Below, one piece after another: positions 3,637-31,342 of a stretch of DNA of 64,000 nt. The DNA is from Candidatus Omnitrophota bacterium (GTDB taxonomy: Bacteria > Omnitrophota > Gorgyraeia > B26-G9): NCBI GenBank assembly GCA_043805415.1, contig JAZDHZ010000035.1, positions 8,557-72,556 of the forward strand. The letters run 5' to 3'. Under the pieces are notes generated by a model that made no database searches, was not told where the DNA came from, and saw only the letters and a list, made by a program, of their open reading frames with translations. Every line of letters begins with the position of its first letter. Positions within the stretch are counted from its first letter, which is position 1. A program made the translations under genes and the position numbers.

Positions 3637-4326
3637 TTAAACATTAAATCTAATATCCAGCATATCTCCATATTGGATAATATAATCTCGATCAACCAAC
3701 TTTACAAATCCGGCTGCTTTAGCTTCCTGCATATTATGTACAGCTTCAAAATCCTTAAAATTCACTATTTCCGCTTTTATAAATCCGCGGGCAAGGTCTG
3801 AATGAATCTTACCAGCACAAGTCACTGCATCCGAGCCTTTCTTAACCGGCCAGGATCTGACTTCCTGCTTTCCCGCTGTGTAAAAAAACATCATTCCGGC
3901 TTTCTCAAAAGCTTTAGCAATTAAATCATTTATCTCAACCTCGCCATCAACAAACAGCGTCGGTTTTAGACTTAAGGGCGCAAGTTCTTTGATTTTTATA
4001 TATTCTTCAGCGCTAAAATCCATATCACAAGCTGGTACTTCTTTTTCCAAATTCTGCTGACATTTCAACAAAGCCGCTTTTTCTGCCTGATCATTTGAGT
4101 TAGCTATGCGCGTATCAACTTTTTCCATATCCATGATTAAAAAATCAAGGACCTGATCTTTTGCCACCACAATGCAATCAGCATTAATAAAATCTTCTTT
4201 TTTAAATTCCGCGAAAAAAGGGGATATTTTTTTAGGCGTGAATTTTTCTGTAAGCTTAATAATTATTTCATCATTATATTTGATTTTCCCCTCGGGAAGA
4301 TCTAATCCGAAAAAACTAATTTTCAT
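3637..4326 (-). CDS. DUF933 / YchF C-terminal (TGS-like) domain protein lacking the GTPase G-domain
   Basis: 229 aa; C-terminal half resembles the YchF/OLA1 C-terminus (MMFFYTAGKQEVRSWPVKKGSDAVTCAGKIHSDLARGFIKAEIVNFKDF...DYIIQYGDMLDIRFNV). No P-loop (GxxxxGKS) in the N-terminus. Confidence 0.55.
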   Translation of the reverse strand: MKISFFGLDLPEGKIKYNDEIIIKLTEKFTPKKISPFFAEFKKEDFINADCIVVAKDQVLDFLIMDMEKVDTRIANSNDQAEKAALLKCQQNLEKEVPACDMDFSAEEYIKIKELAPLSLKPTLFVDGEVEINDLIAKAFEKAGMMFFYTAGKQEVRSWPVKKGSDAVTCAGKIHSDLARGFIKAEIVNFKDFEAVHNMQEAKAAGFVKLVDRDYIIQYGDMLDIRFNV

Positions 4327-7916: not shown

Positions 7917-8279
7917 TATCCCTAAGGTTTTTTAAAAAGCTGTCTATAAGAAAAATTGTCGAAAAATCCGCTTTATTTTATTATACATTAGAGTGGAAAA
8001 AGAAGGCAGGGTTTTTTAATGACAAGATAAACTCAGCGATAATAGCAATCTTTTAATGAGTTAAGCTTTAGACCCGTAGCTTTGCGTCCGCGGATTTCCC
8101 CTGATTTGCCTTTTCGGATATTAAATTTCAAATATAACCCTAAAACAATCTTAATTGCTTTTTAAAACTTATTCAGTAGTGTAGGATTGATTCTAATTTT
8201 TTTCAATATTCGATTTTATAATTTTAAGTATACGCGATTAAATCACTTGAGCTTACGATTATTATTCGCGGTTTATTAC

Positions 8280-12406: not shown

Positions 12407-14350
12407 TTAAAAAACACCTTTTACTCCCACATAAAGCGATCTATCCATGCCGTTATATCCGCGTATCGGCTCATAAGCAATGTCAAAAATATTATCAATC
12501 CGTCCAAATAATTGAATATTTTCCCTTAACTGATACTGGCTGGCAAGATTAGTAATAAAATATTGTTTATTCTTATTATCATTATAAGCCGGCGCGTCCA
12601 TGCGCGAGCCAACATACTGAGCGCTTAACCGAATATCGCCTTTTTCCGAATAAGCCCACTCAAAAAATCCATTAGCTTGATTTTTTGCCCTGCGGCCGAA
12701 TTCCTGGGCTGTATCTGAATCCCGGGTTTTTGTATAAGTATAATTGCCGCCGATTTTTAATGCTTTCAAAACATCAAACTTTGATTCAAGCTCATAGCCT
12801 CTGGCAGTACCGCTTTTAATATTAACATACGCCCAGGTTATGGGATCGCTATCAATTAAATTTTCATATTTATCATAAAAATATGTTGCTGAAAAAAACA
12901 GTTTATTATCCAGACAACGATGCTCTGCTCCAAGATCAAAGCCGCGGCTTTTTTCCGGCTGAAGATTAGCATTCCCATAACTGCCGTCATACAGCTGATA
13001 AATATTCGGCGCTCTGAATGCTGTCCCATAACTTGCTTTTAAACGCGTCATTGTATTGGGAATAAGATATGATGAAGACAGCTTATAGGTCCATTCTGAA
13101 CCAAAAATATCATGCTTATCAACGCGAAATCCCGCGCTGGTAAACAGCTGGTCAGCGAATTCAGCTTGGTTCTGAAAATAAAAAGCCTTATTCTCCAATG
13201 ATCTTCTGTCTGATTGATTATTGCTCCACCAATTAGATCCGGTGGAGTAAGAAGCTCCCCGCTCCTGTTCATATTCACAGCCCAGAGTTTCCGTATCCCA
13301 TTCTGCCAGAGAAATATTATGCTGCCATTCTATTTTTTTGCGGTCTCCCCTGAACCGCGAATACTCATTTTCCGTTGTATCAATGCTGTCCGCCGGATCA
13401 CTGTCATTACGGTCAAAACTAACTCCGGATAAAGTTAATGTATGATCCCAGTTTTCATTTAGCTTTTGCGATAGTCCAAGACTTCCGGAAAATTGCTCTG
13501 ATTCAGTAATCCGATTCGGATCATCCTCATAAGCGCCATCATCAACCGCAACTTCAGCATTTACATAGCGCATATTGGCAAATAGTTTAGTGTTTTCACA
13601 AATTCCCACTCCAATGCGTGAGGAAAATGTGGTATTTGAATATCCATCATCATCCTGTCCGTCGCGGGCTTTAGATATCCCATCGCTGTCAGTTCTCGAT
13701 GCCGCGGCGGAAAAATCAACTTTTTCTTCACTGCCGGATATGGCGATTGATTCCATTAATGTATTATGCGAGCCATACTCTGCCATTACCTCTGTTTTTG
13801 CCGGTCCCTGCCCCTGCTTGGTAATAACATTAATCACTCCGGCCATGGCGTCTGAGCCATACAATGTGCTCTGCGGACCACGCACTATTTCAATGCGTTC
13901 AATATTAGCTGAAGTTAAATGCGCGAAATCAAAATCCTTACTTACTGCCATGGGATCATATACTTCTATTCCATCAATCATGACTAAAGTTTGGCCTCTT
14001 TTCGCGCCGCGGATATTAATTGAAACCGCGCCGCCAAACGAACCGATTGAATCTACCGAAATGCCTGGAACTTCGCTGAGAATCTCATAAACTGGTTTAT
14101 TGGCTTCACTGGCTAAATCTTCCGCGGTAATCACAGTTGTCGAAGCGCCTACTTCAGACTGATAGGTTTGAGTTTTAGTCGCGGAAACAATTACATTGCC
14201 CAGATCATAATCCTGAGCAAATACCTTACAACTATCTATTGCTATTAACATAATCAAACATAATAAAACACATAATATTTTCTTATTCATTTTTTCTTTT
14301 CTCCTCCCGCGAGAATACTCTCCCATTAAAGCAATCGACCGGACTAACAA
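12407..14350 (-). CDS. btuB: TonB-dependent outer-membrane receptor (BtuB-like, vitamin B12/cobalamin uptake)
   Basis: 647 aa; signal peptide, TonB box (DLGNVIVSATKT), plug domain and beta-barrel ending in a C-terminal Phe; sits in the cobalamin uptake locus. Confidence 0.75.
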   Translation of the reverse strand: MLVRSIALMGEYSRGRRKEKMNKKILCVLLCLIMLIAIDSCKVFAQDYDLGNVIVSATKTQTYQSEVGASTTVITAEDLASEANKPVYEILSEVPGISVDSIGSFGGAVSINIRGAKRGQTLVMIDGIEVYDPMAVSKDFDFAHLTSANIERIEIVRGPQSTLYGSDAMAGVINVITKQGQGPAKTEVMAEYGSHNTLMESIAISGSEEKVDFSAAASRTDSDGISKARDGQDDDGYSNTTFSSRIGVGICENTKLFANMRYVNAEVAVDDGAYEDDPNRITESEQFSGSLGLSQKLNENWDHTLTLSGVSFDRNDSDPADSIDTTENEYSRFRGDRKKIEWQHNISLAEWDTETLGCEYEQERGASYSTGSNWWSNNQSDRRSLENKAFYFQNQAEFADQLFTSAGFRVDKHDIFGSEWTYKLSSSYLIPNTMTRLKASYGTAFRAPNIYQLYDGSYGNANLQPEKSRGFDLGAEHRCLDNKLFFSATYFYDKYENLIDSDPITWAYVNIKSGTARGYELESKFDVLKALKIGGNYTYTKTRDSDTAQEFGRRAKNQANGFFEWAYSEKGDIRLSAQYVGSRMDAPAYNDNKNKQYFITNLASQYQLRENIQLFGRIDNIFDIAYEPIRGYNGMDRSLYVGVKGVF

Positions 14351-14709
14351 AATAGCTCTTAGTTCTTAGCTCTTGGCTCTTAGTTTTTTTATTTCTGTTT
14401 TTCCTACGAGCTTAAGAGCTACCAGCTACAAGCTAAATGTATTACCGTTGCGCGGCAGCGCTTTGAATCACACAAAGACTTCCTTTGCTTTTAGGGCAAA
14501 TCTCTTTTTCGGACTTTTAAGTTAATTTAAATTAATTAATATTTACGCCTCTACTCCTAAACCTCCCAGCCTCCTTTCTCCCAATTAATATCCCATCTTC
14601 GTTATTTTCGTCTTATCCTGCAATAGTTGCTTGTCCCGACTTTGTGTGTCGGGGACACGTTTCTACTCTATCCGCTGTACTCAATACTCAAGATGATCAG
14701 CGGATGAAT

Positions 14710-14806
14710 CTCTGATTTTGCCAGTCCTATCAAAATCAGGCTTCAAACCCGCCTAAATAATTATTCCTGCCCTTTATAGTTTATCGCTTTTAGCTTGCAA
14801 CCTTGT
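14710..14806. repeat. Dispersed ~97-bp intergenic element, copy 1 (contains 9-bp inverted repeat CTGATTTTG...CAAAATCAG and promoter-like TTGCAA-N16-TATAAA on the minus strand)
   Basis: ~93% identical to 23657..23753. Located 350-460 nt upstream of btuB. Confidence 0.8.
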
Positions 14807-14854: not shown

Positions 14855-14894
14855 GCTATGAGCCATGACCTATGAGCTAAGCGTTTTGCGCTTC
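14855..14894. repeat. REP-like intergenic repeat family member A (GCTATGAGCCAT...AGCTAAGCG..GCGCTT)
   Basis: Shares GCTATGAGCCAT and AGCTAAGCG-loop-GCGCTT hairpin with 22641..22683 and 30252..30291; immediately 3' of cobO. Confidence 0.65.
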
Positions 14895-14900
14895 CTGTTT

Positions 14901-15437
14901 TTAGTATTCAATTCCTTTTCTTGCCGCAATCCCTTTTTGATAAGGATGTTTTACTTCCTTGATAAAACTTACCAGATCAGCTTTTTTAATCATTTTTTTT
15001 GTTGCCCCGCGTCCGGTAAAAACCAGCTCAAGATTATTTGGCTTTAAATCCATCAAATCAAGCACCTCTTGTTCCTGGATAAAACCATCCCGCACGCAAA
15101 TATTAATTTCATCGGCAATTAAAAGATCAAACTTGTTTTCTCTAAAAACTTTTTTAATATCTTTGATCCCTTTAGCACAGTCATTTTGGAGAGTTTCAAA
15201 ACAAGCCTGCTTTTTTGTAGCACACAAAGGATGGCTTTTAGCAAAACAATGTACTGCTATGCTGATTTTTTTTAATAAATCATAAACTGGCTTGCATTGT
15301 TTTGGATCTTTATGAAAACTAATATAGCAAACCTTCATTTTATGAGCACTGGCCCGCATAGCCAGTCCGCAAGCAGCAGTTGTCTTTCCCTTGCCTGGTC
15401 CGGTATAAATCTGAATTAACCCTCTTTTATTTTTCAT
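14901..15437 (-). CDS. cobO: Cob(I)alamin/cob(I)yrinic acid a,c-diamide adenosyltransferase (CobO/BtuR type)
   Basis: 178 aa; IQIYTGPGKGKTTAACGLAMRA P-loop and overall CobA/CobO family similarity. Confidence 0.8.
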   Translation of the reverse strand: MKNKRGLIQIYTGPGKGKTTAACGLAMRASAHKMKVCYISFHKDPKQCKPVYDLLKKISIAVHCFAKSHPLCATKKQACFETLQNDCAKGIKDIKKVFRENKFDLLIADEINICVRDGFIQEQEVLDLMDLKPNNLELVFTGRGATKKMIKKADLVSFIKEVKHPYQKGIAARKGIEY

Positions 15438-18286: not shown

Positions 18287-18379
18287 TGCACCCTGTTTCT
18301 TCACCCTTCCGCGAGGTTCAAAATATATTCTTCTCACAACCCAGGCAGATATTCTGACTCTCCTGCTTTTCTGACTGCC

Positions 18380-18515
18380 TTCCCGCTTTAAAGCAGTGGC
18401 AAATAACTCTGTCAAAAAAGTTCCCTGATATTATCAGGGCAGGATTACAGCGGCGGGACCGTAACGGAATCATTGCCGAGCAATTCACCGTTTTCCCTTT
18501 TAAGCTTTGTAAAGC
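18380..18515 (-). promoter_or_regulatory. Cobalamin (B12) riboswitch aptamer
   Basis: Minus-strand RNA contains AGGGAAAACGGUGAAUUGC...CGGUCCCGCCGCUGUAA...GCCACUG (B12 box; plus-strand CAGTGGC at 18394-18400). Located in the 5' leader of btuFCD-cobO. Confidence 0.85.
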
Positions 18516-18540
18516 ACCTGTGTTTATTTAACTATCAGCT

Positions 18541-22640: not shown

Positions 22641-22683
22641 GAGCTATCAGCCATCAGCTATAAGCTAAGCGCGAAGCGCTTTC
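22641..22683. repeat. REP-like intergenic repeat family member B
   Basis: Contains a 31-nt exact match (22652..22682) to 30261..30291: CATCAGCTATAAGCTAAGCGCGAAGCGCTTT, ending in the AAGCGC-GAA-GCGCTT mini-hairpin. Lies between convergent genes. Confidence 0.8.
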
Positions 22684-22813
22684 TGCTTTTCCTAAACGCT
22701 ACACGCTGTTTTTTAATATTTATTGGCAAAATACCCTTCATATTCAGGGATATGAATTTTAAGATTCTGAAAACTAGTCCCGGCTTGCTGAAAAATGACC
22801 TGCTTTAGATTTT

Positions 22814-23551
22814 TTATAGTTTCATTAAAAAAACCTTATCCTTAAGCAGTTTTTCATACTTTGGTTTATACTCTGGGTAATGTTTTTCTATTGCTTTAAC
22901 CATCAAGCTTTGCTTTGCCATATTAAAATTAATAATCTCAAATTCCGCTTGCTTAACAATTTCTTTGGCTGAATTCACAATCTGTTTAATATCCGAGATC
23001 ATTGGCAAAATCGGGCAAAAATAACTAATCACCTTAAGCTTTTTATTTTGCAGTTTTAGCACTGTTTCCAGACCTGGTTTAAAATCAGGCGCCTGCATAT
23101 TAAATTCACTGTTTAGAACATCCGGCAAAGCATTAATTGTAAAATAAATACTCTGACAATTACCTTTTCCTAAAACATCAAGATAATCAGTAATCAATGT
23201 TGAGCGGCTCATAATTGTAAACTGAATAGCTTGCTCATTGAGTAATTCTAATATCTGCCGGGTAATTCCATATTTTTTTTCAACCGGCTGAAAACACTCA
23301 GTAATTGAACCCAGCAAAACACTTTTCGGCTTAATCAATTCCAGCTCTTTTTTCAGCACTTCAATAGCATTAATTTTAACCTTAACATAAGTTCCCCAGG
23401 CATGATTTTGTTTTTTAGCGGTTTTGCCAAACTGCGCATAACAAAAACAGCAGCCCAGCTGACAGCCCTGATAAGGATTAATCACAAAAGGCGCCAGATT
23501 TATGCCTGTCGGACGCAGGATTGTTTCAACATTTTGCTCAATAATTTTCAT
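22814..23551 (-). CDS. Radical SAM protein (spore-photoproduct-lyase/DNA-repair-like family)
   Basis: 245 aa; CQLGCCFCYA provides a CxxxCxxC cluster motif near the N-terminus. Confidence 0.55.
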   Translation of the reverse strand: MKIIEQNVETILRPTGINLAPFVINPYQGCQLGCCFCYAQFGKTAKKQNHAWGTYVKVKINAIEVLKKELELIKPKSVLLGSITECFQPVEKKYGITRQILELLNEQAIQFTIMSRSTLITDYLDVLGKGNCQSIYFTINALPDVLNSEFNMQAPDFKPGLETVLKLQNKKLKVISYFCPILPMISDIKQIVNSAKEIVKQAEFEIINFNMAKQSLMVKAIEKHYPEYKPKYEKLLKDKVFLMKL

Positions 23552-23656
23552 AATTAACTCTTTTGCTGCAGAACATACTTTATTACAGGGTTCGGTCTAG
23601 AATCAATCATTTTGGCTCATTCTCGCCTTACCTCCTGTAAGGCTCCGAGGATAAAG

Positions 23657-23753
23657 CTCTGATTTTGCCAGTCCTATCAAAATCAGGCTTTAAACCCGCC
23701 TAAATAATTATTCTAGCCCTTTATAGTTTATAGCTTTTAGCTTGCAGCCTTGT
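23657..23753. repeat. Dispersed ~97-bp intergenic element, copy 2
   Basis: ~93% identical to 14710..14806; abuts the stop codon of the B12-binding radical SAM gene and lies ~100-200 nt upstream of the 22814..23551 start. Confidence 0.8.
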
Positions 23754-23757
23754 GTCC

Positions 23758-25062: not shown

Positions 25063-25235
25063 AACTAAAAACTTTCAATTAGATAATAAAAATTAAATCC
25101 ATTTTGCTTTTCAGAAGATTTCATATACAGTATCCCGGCACACAGCACTGATAAGGATTATCCCCAAAGGTGCCTGATTAATATTATTCGCAGGACGAAG
25201 AATGGTTTAAATATACAGCTTGATGATTTTCATAA

Positions 25236-25991
25236 TTAATCAAGCTGTCTTTCTAAAATTAATTTCTTATTTTCAGAATCAATCTTAAAGTCAAAGTGCT
25301 TTAAAAAAGACATACCCAGAAGCCCATCCCAATAATCGACTCCCCTTTCTTCGGTGAGAATAACTGCGCTAACATCCTCGGCCTCCATGCACCCGACCTT
25401 AACTTTATCCAGAACAATCCTTTTAGCAGGAGATTTACTCCCGTCAGCAAGAATCACATATGTATCCGAACCGGAAATGCGATCAAATCCTGCTGATTTT
25501 GCGGCTGCTTTATTTATCATTATTGCGGTTGCTCCTGTATCTACCAATAAATTCAAGGTTTTCTTACCATTTAAAATAGCCTCAACACCAATACTATTAC
25601 GCTTGGATATATATTCAATCGCGTCTTTTTCTATTTGTTGTTTTTGATCATCCAATTCTTCAGTCAGTCTTCTCTTTATTATTTTGTTCTTTTCCTCTAT
25701 TTGCTGCTGTTGATGCTTTTGCGCTCTTTGCTGAGCTTCTTGCTCCCAATTATCCTGCATTGTTTGTTTTTCTTGCCCATCAGAATTTTCAATTTTTTTG
25801 ATTTTTGATCTATAAAGTTTAGTTGAACCAAATCCTAAGTTTATTCTTATATATTTATCTGTTTGCTGTTCTATAACCCCTTCGATTACACTGCCATTTT
25901 TAAGATATACAGTGTCGGCATAAGCCAAATTAAAAAATACAAGGCCTAAACAAAAAATAACAAGCAATCTGAAAGTTTTTATCTTATTCAT
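25236..25991 (-). CDS. Retropepsin-like (clan AA) aspartic protease with signal peptide
   Basis: 251 aa; signal peptide; Gln/Glu-rich coiled segment; LLVDTGATAIMIN with DTGA catalytic motif. Confidence 0.6.
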   Translation of the reverse strand: MNKIKTFRLLVIFCLGLVFFNLAYADTVYLKNGSVIEGVIEQQTDKYIRINLGFGSTKLYRSKIKKIENSDGQEKQTMQDNWEQEAQQRAQKHQQQQIEEKNKIIKRRLTEELDDQKQQIEKDAIEYISKRNSIGVEAILNGKKTLNLLVDTGATAIMINKAAAKSAGFDRISGSDTYVILADGSKSPAKRIVLDKVKVGCMEAEDVSAVILTEERGVDYWDGLLGMSFLKHFDFKIDSENKKLILERQLD

Positions 25992-30251: not shown

Positions 30252-30291
30252 GCTATGAGCCATCAGCTATAAGCTAAGCGCGAAGCGCTTT
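30252..30291. repeat. REP-like intergenic repeat family member C
   Basis: GCTATGAGCCATCAGCTATAAGCTAAGCGCGAAGCGCTTT; abuts the mscS-like stop codon. Confidence 0.8.
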
Positions 30292-31342
30292 AGTCTTTAT
30301 TCACAAACAAAGTCTGCGTGGGATAGGCAAACTCAATCTTTTCTTTTTTAAATTCTTTCATTATCTCAAGATTAATTTGTTGCTGGATATCCATATATTT
30401 ATTATAATCCGGAGTTAAGGCATAATATACAACTTCAATAACTAGACTAAAATCTCCATATGAGCAAAAATGCGCCCGATCAAACCGAGCATCTTTTATA
30501 TTCTCTATAATTTTTTTAATCATCACTGGCGCTTTTTGCATCTGTTCAAGAGAAGTCTGATACGTTACTCCCAGCTTAAAAACAACACGTCTTTCCTGCA
30601 TTCTTTTATAATTACGGACTCTGGAATTGGTCAAATCAGTATTGGAAAATATCAACTGCTCGCCGCCTAAACTGCGCAATCTTGTTGTTTTCATGCCAAT
30701 ATGCTCAACTGATCCTAAGTAATCATTGATAATAATGAAATCGCCGATCTCAAATGGCCGATCAACGATAATCGCAAAAAAACTAAAAACATCACCAAGC
30801 ACCGCCTGAGCCGCAAGCCCAACCGCGATCCCGCCAATCCCTAATCCGGCAATTATGGTTGAAACTTTAAACCCCAGATTATCAAGTAAAAATACAATGC
30901 CGACCCCCCAGACAATAACTTTTATAACCGTAGCTACGCCTTTTAAGCTTTTCTCTCTGGCATCATTAGCCTGCCCCTTAATATGAAAGGACAATAAAAA
31001 AAAGTTTATTACTGCCACCAAAAAGCGAATTGCCATTATCGTAAGAATCGCTGTGACAAAAACATTCATTGCTTTTATAACCCCGAGAGGCAAAGTTAGA
31101 TTTTGCATGCACAAATAAAACACGCCCACATATAAAAGCGGCATAACAGTACGCTGCATGATCCGGATAAAAAAATCATCGATTTTTGTCGCTGTTTTCC
31201 TTGCCAGCATCTTAAGTCTTTTAACAATAATATGCTTTACGATTATCAGCACTAAAATGCTGCCGATAAAGATTCCCAGGCAAATCATATATTCGCGCAG
31301 GGTATTGCCAAAAACCAGCTTATTTAAGATCTCGGTAAACAT
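30290..31342 (-). CDS. Mechanosensitive ion channel (MscS family)
   Basis: 350 aa; N-terminal TM helices and MscS-type C-terminal beta/alpha-beta domains (GDFIIINDYLGSVEHIGMKTTRLRS). Confidence 0.8.
   Translation of the reverse strand: MFTEILNKLVFGNTLREYMICLGIFIGSILVLIIVKHIIVKRLKMLARKTATKIDDFFIRIMQRTVMPLLYVGVFYLCMQNLTLPLGVIKAMNVFVTAILTIMAIRFLVAVINFFLLSFHIKGQANDAREKSLKGVATVIKVIVWGVGIVFLLDNLGFKVSTIIAGLGIGGIAVGLAAQAVLGDVFSFFAIIVDRPFEIGDFIIINDYLGSVEHIGMKTTRLRSLGGEQLIFSNTDLTNSRVRNYKRMQERRVVFKLGVTYQTSLEQMQKAPVMIKKIIENIKDARFDRAHFCSYGDFSLVIEVVYYALTPDYNKYMDIQQQINLEIMKEFKKEKIEFAYPTQTLFVNKD

Follow-up and report, generated by a model that had tools for sequence, protein, structure and literature searches.

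A stretch of 64,000 nucleotides from a Candidatus Omnitrophota bacterium (assembly GCA_043805415.1, contig JAZDHZ010000035.1, positions 8,557 to 72,556 of the forward strand), referred to as the window in the following, contains two similar segments at 14697-14806 (copy A) and 23644-23753 (copy B). Based on sequence comparison, both repeats are considered copies of a dispersed Omnitrophota cassette that supplies a promoter and a 5' leader to the gene behind it, with a probability of roughly 0.6. The cassette would combine a promoter-like box (-35 TTGCAA or CTGCAA, 16 nt, -10 TATAAA) with an RNA of ~126 nt fused to it on the minus strand, which is predicted to fold into a three-way junction. 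More than 100 metagenomic relatives of this RNA were found in all by a core-motif scan and a covariance model. The family is repeated, strand-specific, structure-constrained, and proliferating, and the copies of the Omnitrophota lineage are tightly linked to gene starts.

The repeat pair and its structured RNA

Copies A and B were 92% identical across 110 nt and, by blastn, 93.3% identical across 105 nt, in agreement with the ~93% given in an earlier sequence-only reading of the window. No third copy was found in the 64-kb window by pattern searches or the covariance model. Three sub-blocks of the repeat, a 28-mer (CTGATTTTG-N10-CAAAATCAG), a 22-mer, and a 31-mer, are each present exactly twice at three mismatches or fewer, and the number of matches expected by chance for them was 0.00 in 100 shuffles. 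Alignment of the flanks on either side of the two copies revealed no relation between them. The point at which the copies cease to be alike, 14701/23648, is set by an internal deletion in copy A and is not the end of the element. The repeat that the sequence-only reading had measured at ~97 bp is therefore real, but the unit in copy B runs ~60 nt further downstream, to ~23594.

On the minus strand, the layout conserved among the copies consists of ...TATAAA, GGGCAGGAAUAAUUAUUUAGGCGGGUUUGAAGCCUGAUUUUGAUAGGACUGGCAAAAUCAGAGAUUCAUCCUCGGAG, a 17-nt hairpin, and CGAGAAUGAGCCAAAAUGAUUGAUUCCGGACCG, and copy B has all of it (23719-23594). The element is ~126 nt long, or ~165 nt when the promoter box is counted. 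The covariance model assigned 106 bits to copy B (E 2e-27), and folding of the consensus or of copy B alone resulted in the same closing helix P1, arm P2, and hairpin P3, with z-scores of -4.2 and -4.8, respectively. The coordinates of these helices and of the conserved strings in the junction, which in the lineage RNA also carries AGGCGG, are listed in Table 1.

An operator or structured 5' leader built on a 9-bp inverted repeat had been proposed for both copies. A structured region does lie directly after the -35/-10-like pair, but the hairpin is not isolated, as it forms the distal part of arm P2. There it is lengthened by UGAAGC/GAUUCA, and conservation among the copies extends beyond it, through P3 to ...GAUUCCGGACCG. 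Intrinsic terminators would show a GC-rich stem and a T run, whereas the 9-bp stem is AT-rich and followed by AGAGAUUCAUCC; a terminator scan inside the element flagged only a different, weak 6-bp alternative. A conserved small open reading frame (ORF) within the element, AUGAGCCAAAAUGAUUGA, was rejected as a candidate, since a stop interrupts it in locus L023 and its continuation covaries as P1.

Copies in related Omnitrophota genomes

A hairpin-pattern scan covering one genome per species returned 24 specific matches, of which 11 were located on contigs of the Omnitrophota metagenome-assembled genome (MAG) JAHITE01 and 13 on contigs of JAHITY01, while the other matches were due to chance. 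The related Omnitrophota genomes carry at least 11 to 13 cassettes each. These 24 copies occupy unrelated loci on many contigs, which upheld the earlier view of a portable module rather than the tail of a duplication.

A co-oriented ORF lies within 430 nt downstream in 17 of the 23 evaluable copies, several of them at 7-60 nt, and the genes upstream of the copies are mostly co-oriented too. The downstream genes, which from their N-termini we take to be tgt, aroE (twice), pfkA, rsmH, yajC, two glycosyltransferases, and others, do not belong to one pathway, which speaks against a metabolite or cobalamin regulator common to them. TonB receptors and a radical SAM protein were also identified among the downstream genes by Pfam. 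After P1, a T-rich run was present in 1 of 22 lineage copies, so that transcription would run on into the gene.

A TA-rich hexamer, mostly TATAAA, abuts the element in most copies whatever lies further upstream. Among the upstream types, 'class I', to which both window copies belong, has TTGCAA, a spacer of 15-16 nt, and TATAAA, TATAAT or GATAAA, and 'class II' has weaker candidate hexamers. The minus-strand hexamers and the 16-nt spacer were found in both window copies as the sequence-only reading had described them (Table 1). Where copy B has CTGCAA, TTGCAA stands in its orthologue L043 and in the majority of 'class I' copies, and the paralogue L056 carries TATAAT as its -10-like hexamer. 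In 'class I' copies (window 23748-23757; L035, L043, L065), TTGCAA is immediately preceded by one to four octamers of the type GGACACAA / GGTCACAA, and copy B and its orthologue L043 are one 8-nt unit apart. Simple slippage may account for these units, or they may form a binding site.

Mean identity among the lineage copies was 93%. In an alignment of 26 distinct copies, 93.2% of the cells pair, compared with 30-46% when the partners were slid. Compensatory changes were detected in P1 (G-C to A-U in 9 sequences), in two pairs of P2 (5 and 1 sequences), and in five pairs of P3 (mostly 10 sequences each). At the locus of copy B, 128 of 131 positions of the element (97.7%) are identical between the window and L043. 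In the same comparison, identity was 89.5% in the promoter box, which differs by an indel of 8 nt, 84.6 and 86.0% in the flanking coding sequences, and 76.5% at their third codon positions. Intact copy B evolves approximately ten times more slowly than the synonymous sites of its neighbours. The constraint covers the whole length of the element, loops included, and the sequence after P1 is not conserved among the copies. Orthologues have variants in common that paralogues lack, so the conservation reflects purifying selection on each copy and not homogenisation.

A divergent relative scoring 22-24 bits was found at L004 4899-5018 (+) and at L068 1350-1469 (-), the latter equal to L105 364-483. 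Its distance to the regular MAG copy downstream is at most a few hundred nt. It has UUUGAGCGG in common with the regular copies and resembles them in P2 (AAUUUUGACAAGGAUGUCAAAAU) and P3, the junction strings differ, and it may represent a second subfamily.

A wider RNA family in metagenomes

Metagenomes were scanned for the junction strings of the element with the pattern TCCTCGGAG, 13-21 nt, CGRGAATGAGC, and the relatives were sorted by a P1-complementarity parse and later by the covariance model. The scan returned at least 120 loci, and ~100 of the matches listed agree with the element in architecture and differ entirely in the sequences of the helices. From 5' to 3', this architecture consists of P1 (13-34 bp), (U)GAGCGG-NUU, P2, UCCUCGGAG, P3, CGAGAAUGAGC-GA, and the return strand of P1. 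P2 spans ~17-82 nt and is absent in a few members, and P3 spans 13-21 nt.

Covariation had been named as the check for a conserved RNA structure, and compensatory changes appeared in every helix, both within the lineage and across the family. RNAalifold identified them in all 16 pairs of P1. In a curated alignment of 18 sequences (A3), 92.5% of the cells pair compared with 70.9% after shuffling and ~40% after sliding, and double changes occur in 20 of 23 pairs. The alignment of 81 distinct members (A4), which was fitted to the covariance model and therefore leans towards the structure, had 93.0% of cells pairing compared with 63.1% shuffled and 34-48% slid, and a covariation score of 0.761 vs. 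0.213. A hairpin occupies the same place in the P2 segment of 56 out of 79 members despite unrelated sequences, starting 3-4 nt after GAGCGG and ending at the base before UCCUCGGAG.

G-U pairs outnumbered A-C combinations in the helices by 69 to 21 in 57 members outside Omnitrophota, counted on the strand that corresponds to the minus strand of the window. At the junction-proximal ends of P1 and P3, 5'-GA-3' faces 5'-GA-3' in most members, an arrangement that we take to be tandem sheared G-A and whose complement would be U-C mismatches. Sequences compatible with tandem G-A or a kink-turn-like motif are found in most non-Omnitrophota members at the top of P1 (..UGAGC / GAGCGA..) and at the base of P3 (GGAG / CGAG), and the Omnitrophota lineage has AGGC / GCCA in place of the P1 site. 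Together, the G-U excess and the placement of GA opposite GA indicate selection on the minus-strand RNA rather than on duplex DNA. Our best guess is that the junction is a protein-binding fold resting on the tandem G-A pairs.

The family occurs in Omnitrophota, Nitrospirota, and Parcubacteria, the latter two being placed by neighbour proteins. The closest named homologues of GyrA in L101 (89-91%) and of PNPase in L103 (up to 96%) were found in Thermodesulfovibrionales/Nitrospirota, and Obg in L140 was 100% identical to a Parcubacteria protein over 78% of its length. Neighbours of the non-Omnitrophota members are unrelated housekeeping genes, and all-against-all BLASTP clustering of 336 neighbouring ORFs yielded no recurrent protein family. 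An associated protein such as a transposase, TnpB/IscB or a reverse transcriptase was rejected on these grounds. A T-rich run follows P1 in ~20% of the members outside Omnitrophota. P1 as a general intrinsic terminator was discarded, given this share and the single run in the lineage. Phage origin was likewise rejected, as the core pattern gave only two chance matches in GC-rich coding DNA of viral contigs.

Several loci carry two copies within a few kb. Diverged pairs within ~500 nt were observed in L100 (4101-4229 and 4581-4711), where the copies flank the rplU gene (ribosomal protein L21), and in L184 (3644-3762 on the minus and 3882-3995 on the plus strand).

Transposon-like copies

A miniature inverted-repeat transposable element (MITE) carrying an outward promoter had been offered as the alternative to a regulatory module. 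Support for a MITE-like element came from one subfamily of the RNA family. The AT-rich subfamily in Nitrospirota has outer inverted termini CCCATATTATTCATAAA ~160 bp apart. Its termini are flanked by 4-bp direct repeats (TTAA, CTAA, CTAT, and TTAG), which are perfect in 4 of 7 pairs and have one mismatch in the other 3, and the target duplications have the form YTAR or YTAT. An empty site was also identified. The spacer between gyrA and a convergent GTPase gene is ~240 nt long in L101 and L178, where it holds an element starting right after the TAG stop codon, and 41 nt long in L193, where it holds none; L191 and L192 likewise have no element after gyrA. This Nitrospirota subfamily is a miniature transposon of ~165 bp with the RNA inside. 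No autonomous partner with the same termini was found in the loci examined.

The elements of the window lineage are short (~126 nt), non-coding, and dispersed (2 copies in the window, 11 and 13 in the MAGs), in line with MITEs, whose length stays below ~300 bp. Their ends are complementary (GGGCWRGAAU... / ...AUUCYRGACC) and behave as the covarying helix P1.

Decay of copy A

Copy A follows the conserved layout only to ...AGAUUCAUCC (14702) and lacks P3, both conserved junction strings, and the 3' strand of P1. The covariance model accordingly scored it at 30.5 bits over the 5' half only. The TonB-receptor loci L014 and L020, from two MAGs, are orthologous to the window locus, with receptors 80-81% identical and a CobO-like gene likewise upstream, and both have a full-length element at the site orthologous to copy A. 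In the alignment with L020, the window lacks ~106 nt starting after ...AGAUUCAUCC. Lost with this stretch were P3, what remained of the core, the 3' strand of P1, and ~48 nt past the element. The deletion fused copy A to a downstream module (14668-14701), of which L048 has a 91% identical version behind its full-length element and L020 a homologue. Judged by these alignments, copy A is a decayed copy without the conserved RNA core.

Features in the window and their coordinates are listed in Table 1.

Table 1. Features of the two element copies, their promoter-like boxes, and the adjoining genes in the window
Feature	Position	Strand	Basis or remark
Intact structured RNA, copy B, ~126 nt, three-way junction	23594..23719	-	Covariance model and minimum-energy fold
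P1 of copy B, ~21-bp closing helix between the RNA ends	5' strand 23698-23719, 3' strand 23594-23616	-	
P2 arm of copy B	23652-23692	-	
P3 hairpin of copy B	23626-23642	-	
Conserved junction string UCCUCGGAG, copy B	23643-23651	-	
Conserved junction string CGAGAAUGAGC, copy B	23615-23625	-	
9-bp hairpin CUGAUUUUG-N10-CAAAAUCAG, distal part of P2, copy B	23659..23686	-	
-35-like hexamer CTGCAA, copy B	23742..23747	-	Read from sequence; 16-nt spacer to TATAAA
-10-like hexamer TATAAA, copy B	23720..23725	-	Abuts the RNA element directly
Radical SAM protein gene, downstream of copy B	22814..23551	-	Pfam; ATG 42 nt past the element
Truncated element, copy A	14702..14772	-	Keeps P1 5' strand, junction AGGCGGGUU, and P2
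P2 of copy A	14705-14745, hairpin at 14712-14739	-	
-35-like hexamer TTGCAA, copy A	14795..14800	-	Read from sequence; 16-nt spacer to TATAAA
-10-like hexamer TATAAA, copy A	14773..14778	-	Read from sequence
Downstream module GCTGATCATCTTGAGTATTGAGTACAGCGGATAG, fused to copy A by deletion	14668..14701	-	Alignment to L048 and L020
Conserved leader between copy A and the TonB-receptor gene	14351..14533	-	RF00174, 11.3 bits vs. gathering score 31.5
TonB-dependent receptor gene, downstream of copy A	12407..14290	-	Pfam Plug and beta-barrel domains

Comparison with catalogued RNAs and known repeats

No family among the 4227 models of Rfam 15 gave a meaningful match at either window copy at E up to 10. 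For the relatives, no match to the element was obtained in 20 at gathering score or in 7 at E up to 1. Apart from chance matches of the microRNA type, no Rfam match overlapped the element in the window copies and the relatives tested, and none of the hammerhead, twister, twister-sister, pistol, hatchet, HDV, 6S, SRP or HEARO models matched at the element. In the literature, full-text searches with core strings matched unrelated primer sequences only, and keyword searches found no description of the motif.

A regulator shared through the cobalamin neighbourhood had been thought plausible for the two genes. The cassette is not a cobalamin-specific regulator. It precedes functionally unrelated genes in the MAGs, the TonB-receptor gene has a weak cobalamin-like leader of its own, and copy A lacks the RNA core. 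The leader (14351-14533) is well conserved in L014 and L020, with an insertion of ~75 nt within it in L020, and may be a divergent cobalamin riboswitch. The cobalamin riboswitch model RF00174 had its only true match in the window at 18327-18536 and none at either copy. A cobalamin-linked regulon or operator was therefore rejected, as the other copies stand before unrelated genes and the true cobalamin riboswitch lies elsewhere. That riboswitch (80.7 bits, minus strand) is upstream of an operon of btuF/btuC/btuD-like transporter genes and cobO, which ends just short of copy A.

The following known systems were compared by their general features. Correia elements (CREE/NEMIS) of Neisseria are alike in being short, multi-copy, and intergenic, with inverted termini and a long RNA stem; they are often co-transcribed with their neighbours, and some copies give promoter hexamers downstream. 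Unlike them, the present family has a conserved three-way junction and covarying arms and is found in three phyla, and no target duplication was found in its Omnitrophota copies, while the Nitrospirota subfamily duplicates 4 bp. ERIC/IRU, BOX, RUP, and REP/REPIN repeats share the dispersed, imperfectly palindromic, intergenic character, the length of ~100-170 nt, and the conservation across related species, and a presumed action as RNA, through the stability or processing of mRNAs, is a further point in common. However, ERIC-type repeats are restricted to related genera and form essentially one long hairpin, whereas the family described here is branched, carries junction strings, tolerates G-U in a strand-specific manner, and has members in three phyla.

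Orphan RNA motifs and riboswitch aptamers in Rfam resemble the family in their multi-helix junction, invariant junction nucleotides, freely covarying helices, and arms of variable length. In contrast to these, it shows no coherent gene association, is multi-copy, and has one subfamily within a miniature transposon. 'Cuckoo'-type small RNAs (sRNAs) of the Rhizobiales and sibling sRNAs are similar in that several near-identical small structured RNA genes are scattered intergenically, but the former are short hairpins with their own terminators, and the Omnitrophota copies border on downstream genes and have no terminator. Dispersed repeats between genes that fold at the RNA level and in some cases carry promoters are an already known kind, exemplified by the Correia and ERIC elements. 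What is new is a branched, junction-conserved RNA in three phyla that is absent from Rfam and is carried on a miniature transposon in one phylum. The family may be a new functional RNA class.

The proposed promoter-plus-leader cassette and its alternatives

Under the proposed mechanism, the element would have spread by transposition or recombination and then been retained, with co-option in the Omnitrophota lineage. The transcript would begin just past TATAAA, at the base of P1 or within it, and run through the folded RNA into the downstream gene. The RNA would then form the 5' end of the mRNA, and the cassette would deliver a promoter together with a stably folded 5' leader.

Several observations weigh against this reading. 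A consensus promoter scan gave no call at copy A or B. Sigma-70 promoters are recognised by hexamers near TTGACA and TATAAT, 16-18 nt apart, with A2 and T6 in the -10, and the scan rejects both -10 boxes because TATAAA has A instead of T at position 6. The standard distance of 7 nt puts the start site within P1, so that the outer P1 pairs would be untranscribed, and in 'class III', to which about one in three MAG copies belongs, a GC-rich hairpin lies upstream and a -35-like hexamer is missing. Copy A is kept upstream of a conserved gene without the core, which means that the core is not needed for the expression of that gene. Outside the lineage, of 19 members flanked by co-directional genes, 18 are antisense to those genes by the author's tally, the reverse of the Omnitrophota pattern, and a leader role can therefore not be the general function of the family. 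The window and MAG copies have no direct repeat in the 4 nt before GGGC and after GACCG, and no empty site was found in the Omnitrophota lineage, both window sites being filled in related MAGs. Mobility in the Omnitrophota lineage is accordingly deduced from the relatives. Finally, part of the invariance of the junction strings among the metagenomic matches results from the pattern used to search for them. Variants with a changed core (CCCUCGGAG, ACCCCGGAG) and one copy without P3 were also recovered by the covariance model.

A broader interpretation, which we put forward tentatively and would not bet on, regards the junction RNA as a new, phylum-spanning functional RNA class, either a ribozyme or the scaffold of an RNA-protein particle, that is carried along by miniature mobile elements. 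The element would depend on the fold of this RNA for its own spread or maintenance, and it would have been domesticated in Omnitrophota as a promoter-plus-leader cassette for housekeeping operons.

Among the rival explanations, an independent multi-copy sRNA gene would produce an RNA of ~126 nt from its own promoter, acting in trans or in an RNA-protein particle, and its position next to genes would be incidental or its read-through exploited. The antisense or convergent orientation of most members outside Omnitrophota speaks for it, as the RNA would have to be expressed alone there, and so do the T-rich runs after P1 in about a fifth of these members, the unrelated housekeeping neighbours without a protein family in common, and the strong constraint on the whole length including the loops. 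It is nevertheless rather unlikely. Within the lineage such a run follows a single copy of 22, most evaluable copies (17 of 23) closely precede a co-oriented gene, sometimes 7-20 nt from its ribosome-binding site, and copy A has been retained despite the loss of the RNA core.

A riboswitch or other cis-acting sensor, in which the junction binds a metabolite or ion and the downstream genes form one regulon, appears improbable. The structured, aptamer-like core, with its conserved multi-helix fold, conserved junction, and variable helices, would fit, as would the place of the element in 5' untranslated regions of the Omnitrophota lineage. Coherent downstream genes and an expression platform are missing, however: the genes share no pathway, and no terminator, anti-terminator or partner sequestering the ribosome-binding site is conserved after P1. 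Copies that are 93% identical on average are unlike riboswitch paralogues, the element lies upstream of a separate cobalamin-like leader in L014 and L020, it is antisense to its neighbours in other phyla, and no Rfam riboswitch matched it.

Very improbable is a self-cleaving ribozyme on a mobile element, which would explain the strand-specific constraint and the tolerance of the element mainly in the inactive antisense orientation within operons of other phyla. A small three-way junction with conserved junction nucleotides, a multi-copy occurrence linked to a miniature transposon, and the orientation bias of 18 vs. 1 relative to co-directional neighbours outside the lineage agree with it. None of the hammerhead, twister, twister-sister, pistol, hatchet or HDV models matched, though, and a P1 of 13-34 bp is longer than what is generally known of small ribozymes. 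The sense orientation within operon-like arrays is moreover the rule in Omnitrophota, where such a ribozyme would cut the mRNAs.

That the repeat acts at the DNA level only, as a miniature transposon or recombination scar without RNA function whose hexamers arose by chance in AT-rich DNA, is scarcely credible. One subfamily does have terminal inverted repeats and target duplications, the promoter scan was negative at both copies, and copy A decays without obvious harm. Yet in three phyla, and with wholly different sequences, compensatory changes have preserved the pairing of all three helices, the ratio of G-U to A-C is strand-specific, and the orthologous element is conserved at 97.7% compared with 76.5% at synonymous positions. 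The tail of a recent segmental duplication, suggested by the position of both copies within one 9-kb stretch and by a separate partial duplication nearby (25122-25239 vs. 23442-23557, 77%), is refuted because the flanks are unrelated, 24 copies are dispersed over many contigs of two other genomes, and each window copy has its own same-locus orthologues, L014 and L020 for copy A and L043 for copy B.

Neighbouring genes and other repeats in the window

Pfam confirmed the types of gene that had been read downstream of the two copies, a TonB-dependent receptor gene after copy A and a radical SAM gene after copy B (Table 1). The start of the receptor is likely the ATG at 14290 and not the TTG at 14350, judging from the orthologue in L014, which aligns with 14290-12410 at 81% identity. 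By Pfam, a TonB gene follows next after the receptor, the gene upstream of copy A encodes a CobO/BtuR adenosyltransferase, and copy B is preceded by the gene of a B12-binding radical SAM protein. A lookup of window proteins by exact sequence found no record of any of them.

The radical SAM orthologue in L043 has 76.6% protein identity. At 22716-22832, the alignment of this orthologue of 279 aa continues past the stop of the 245-aa ORF in the window, and the final 39 residues are matched once more in a different frame. A 3' frameshift may be present in the window gene. The segment 25122-25239, which sits upstream of the B12-binding radical SAM gene, is 77% identical to 23442-23557, comprising the ribosome-binding site and the first ~35 codons of the radical SAM gene, which suggests an old partial duplication or insertion of that gene.

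A repeat with three copies was found at 14855-14901, 22643-22689, and 30252-30298. On the minus strand, it consists of a short GC hairpin (AAGCGCTTCGCGCTT) followed by the heptamer-like AGCTGAT, GGCTGAT or AGCTCAT, and similar heptamer runs precede many of the element copies in the MAGs. A direct repeat of 300 nt (356-655 vs. 2075-2374, 79% identity, spacing 1719 nt) probably reflects paralogous genes. A c-di-GMP-I riboswitch (RF01051) was detected at 8024-8120 on the minus strand with 42 bits, compared with a gathering score of 35. Besides the cobalamin riboswitch, it was the only Rfam 15 match in the window.

Implications

The likely promoter of two genes, that of the B12-related TonB receptor and that of a radical SAM protein, would come from a repeat cassette and not from a cobalamin-specific control element. 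Widespread bacterial RNAs without an assigned function are few, and a structured family with good support is added to them here. Its more than 100 members belong to three phyla that consist largely of uncultivated lineages, the helices are backed by compensatory changes, and the family has no entry in Rfam. As sequences, a covariance model, and exact boundaries are at hand, it is directly testable. With one subfamily that is transposon-like and another fixed upstream of housekeeping genes, the family joins structured RNAs with miniature mobile elements.

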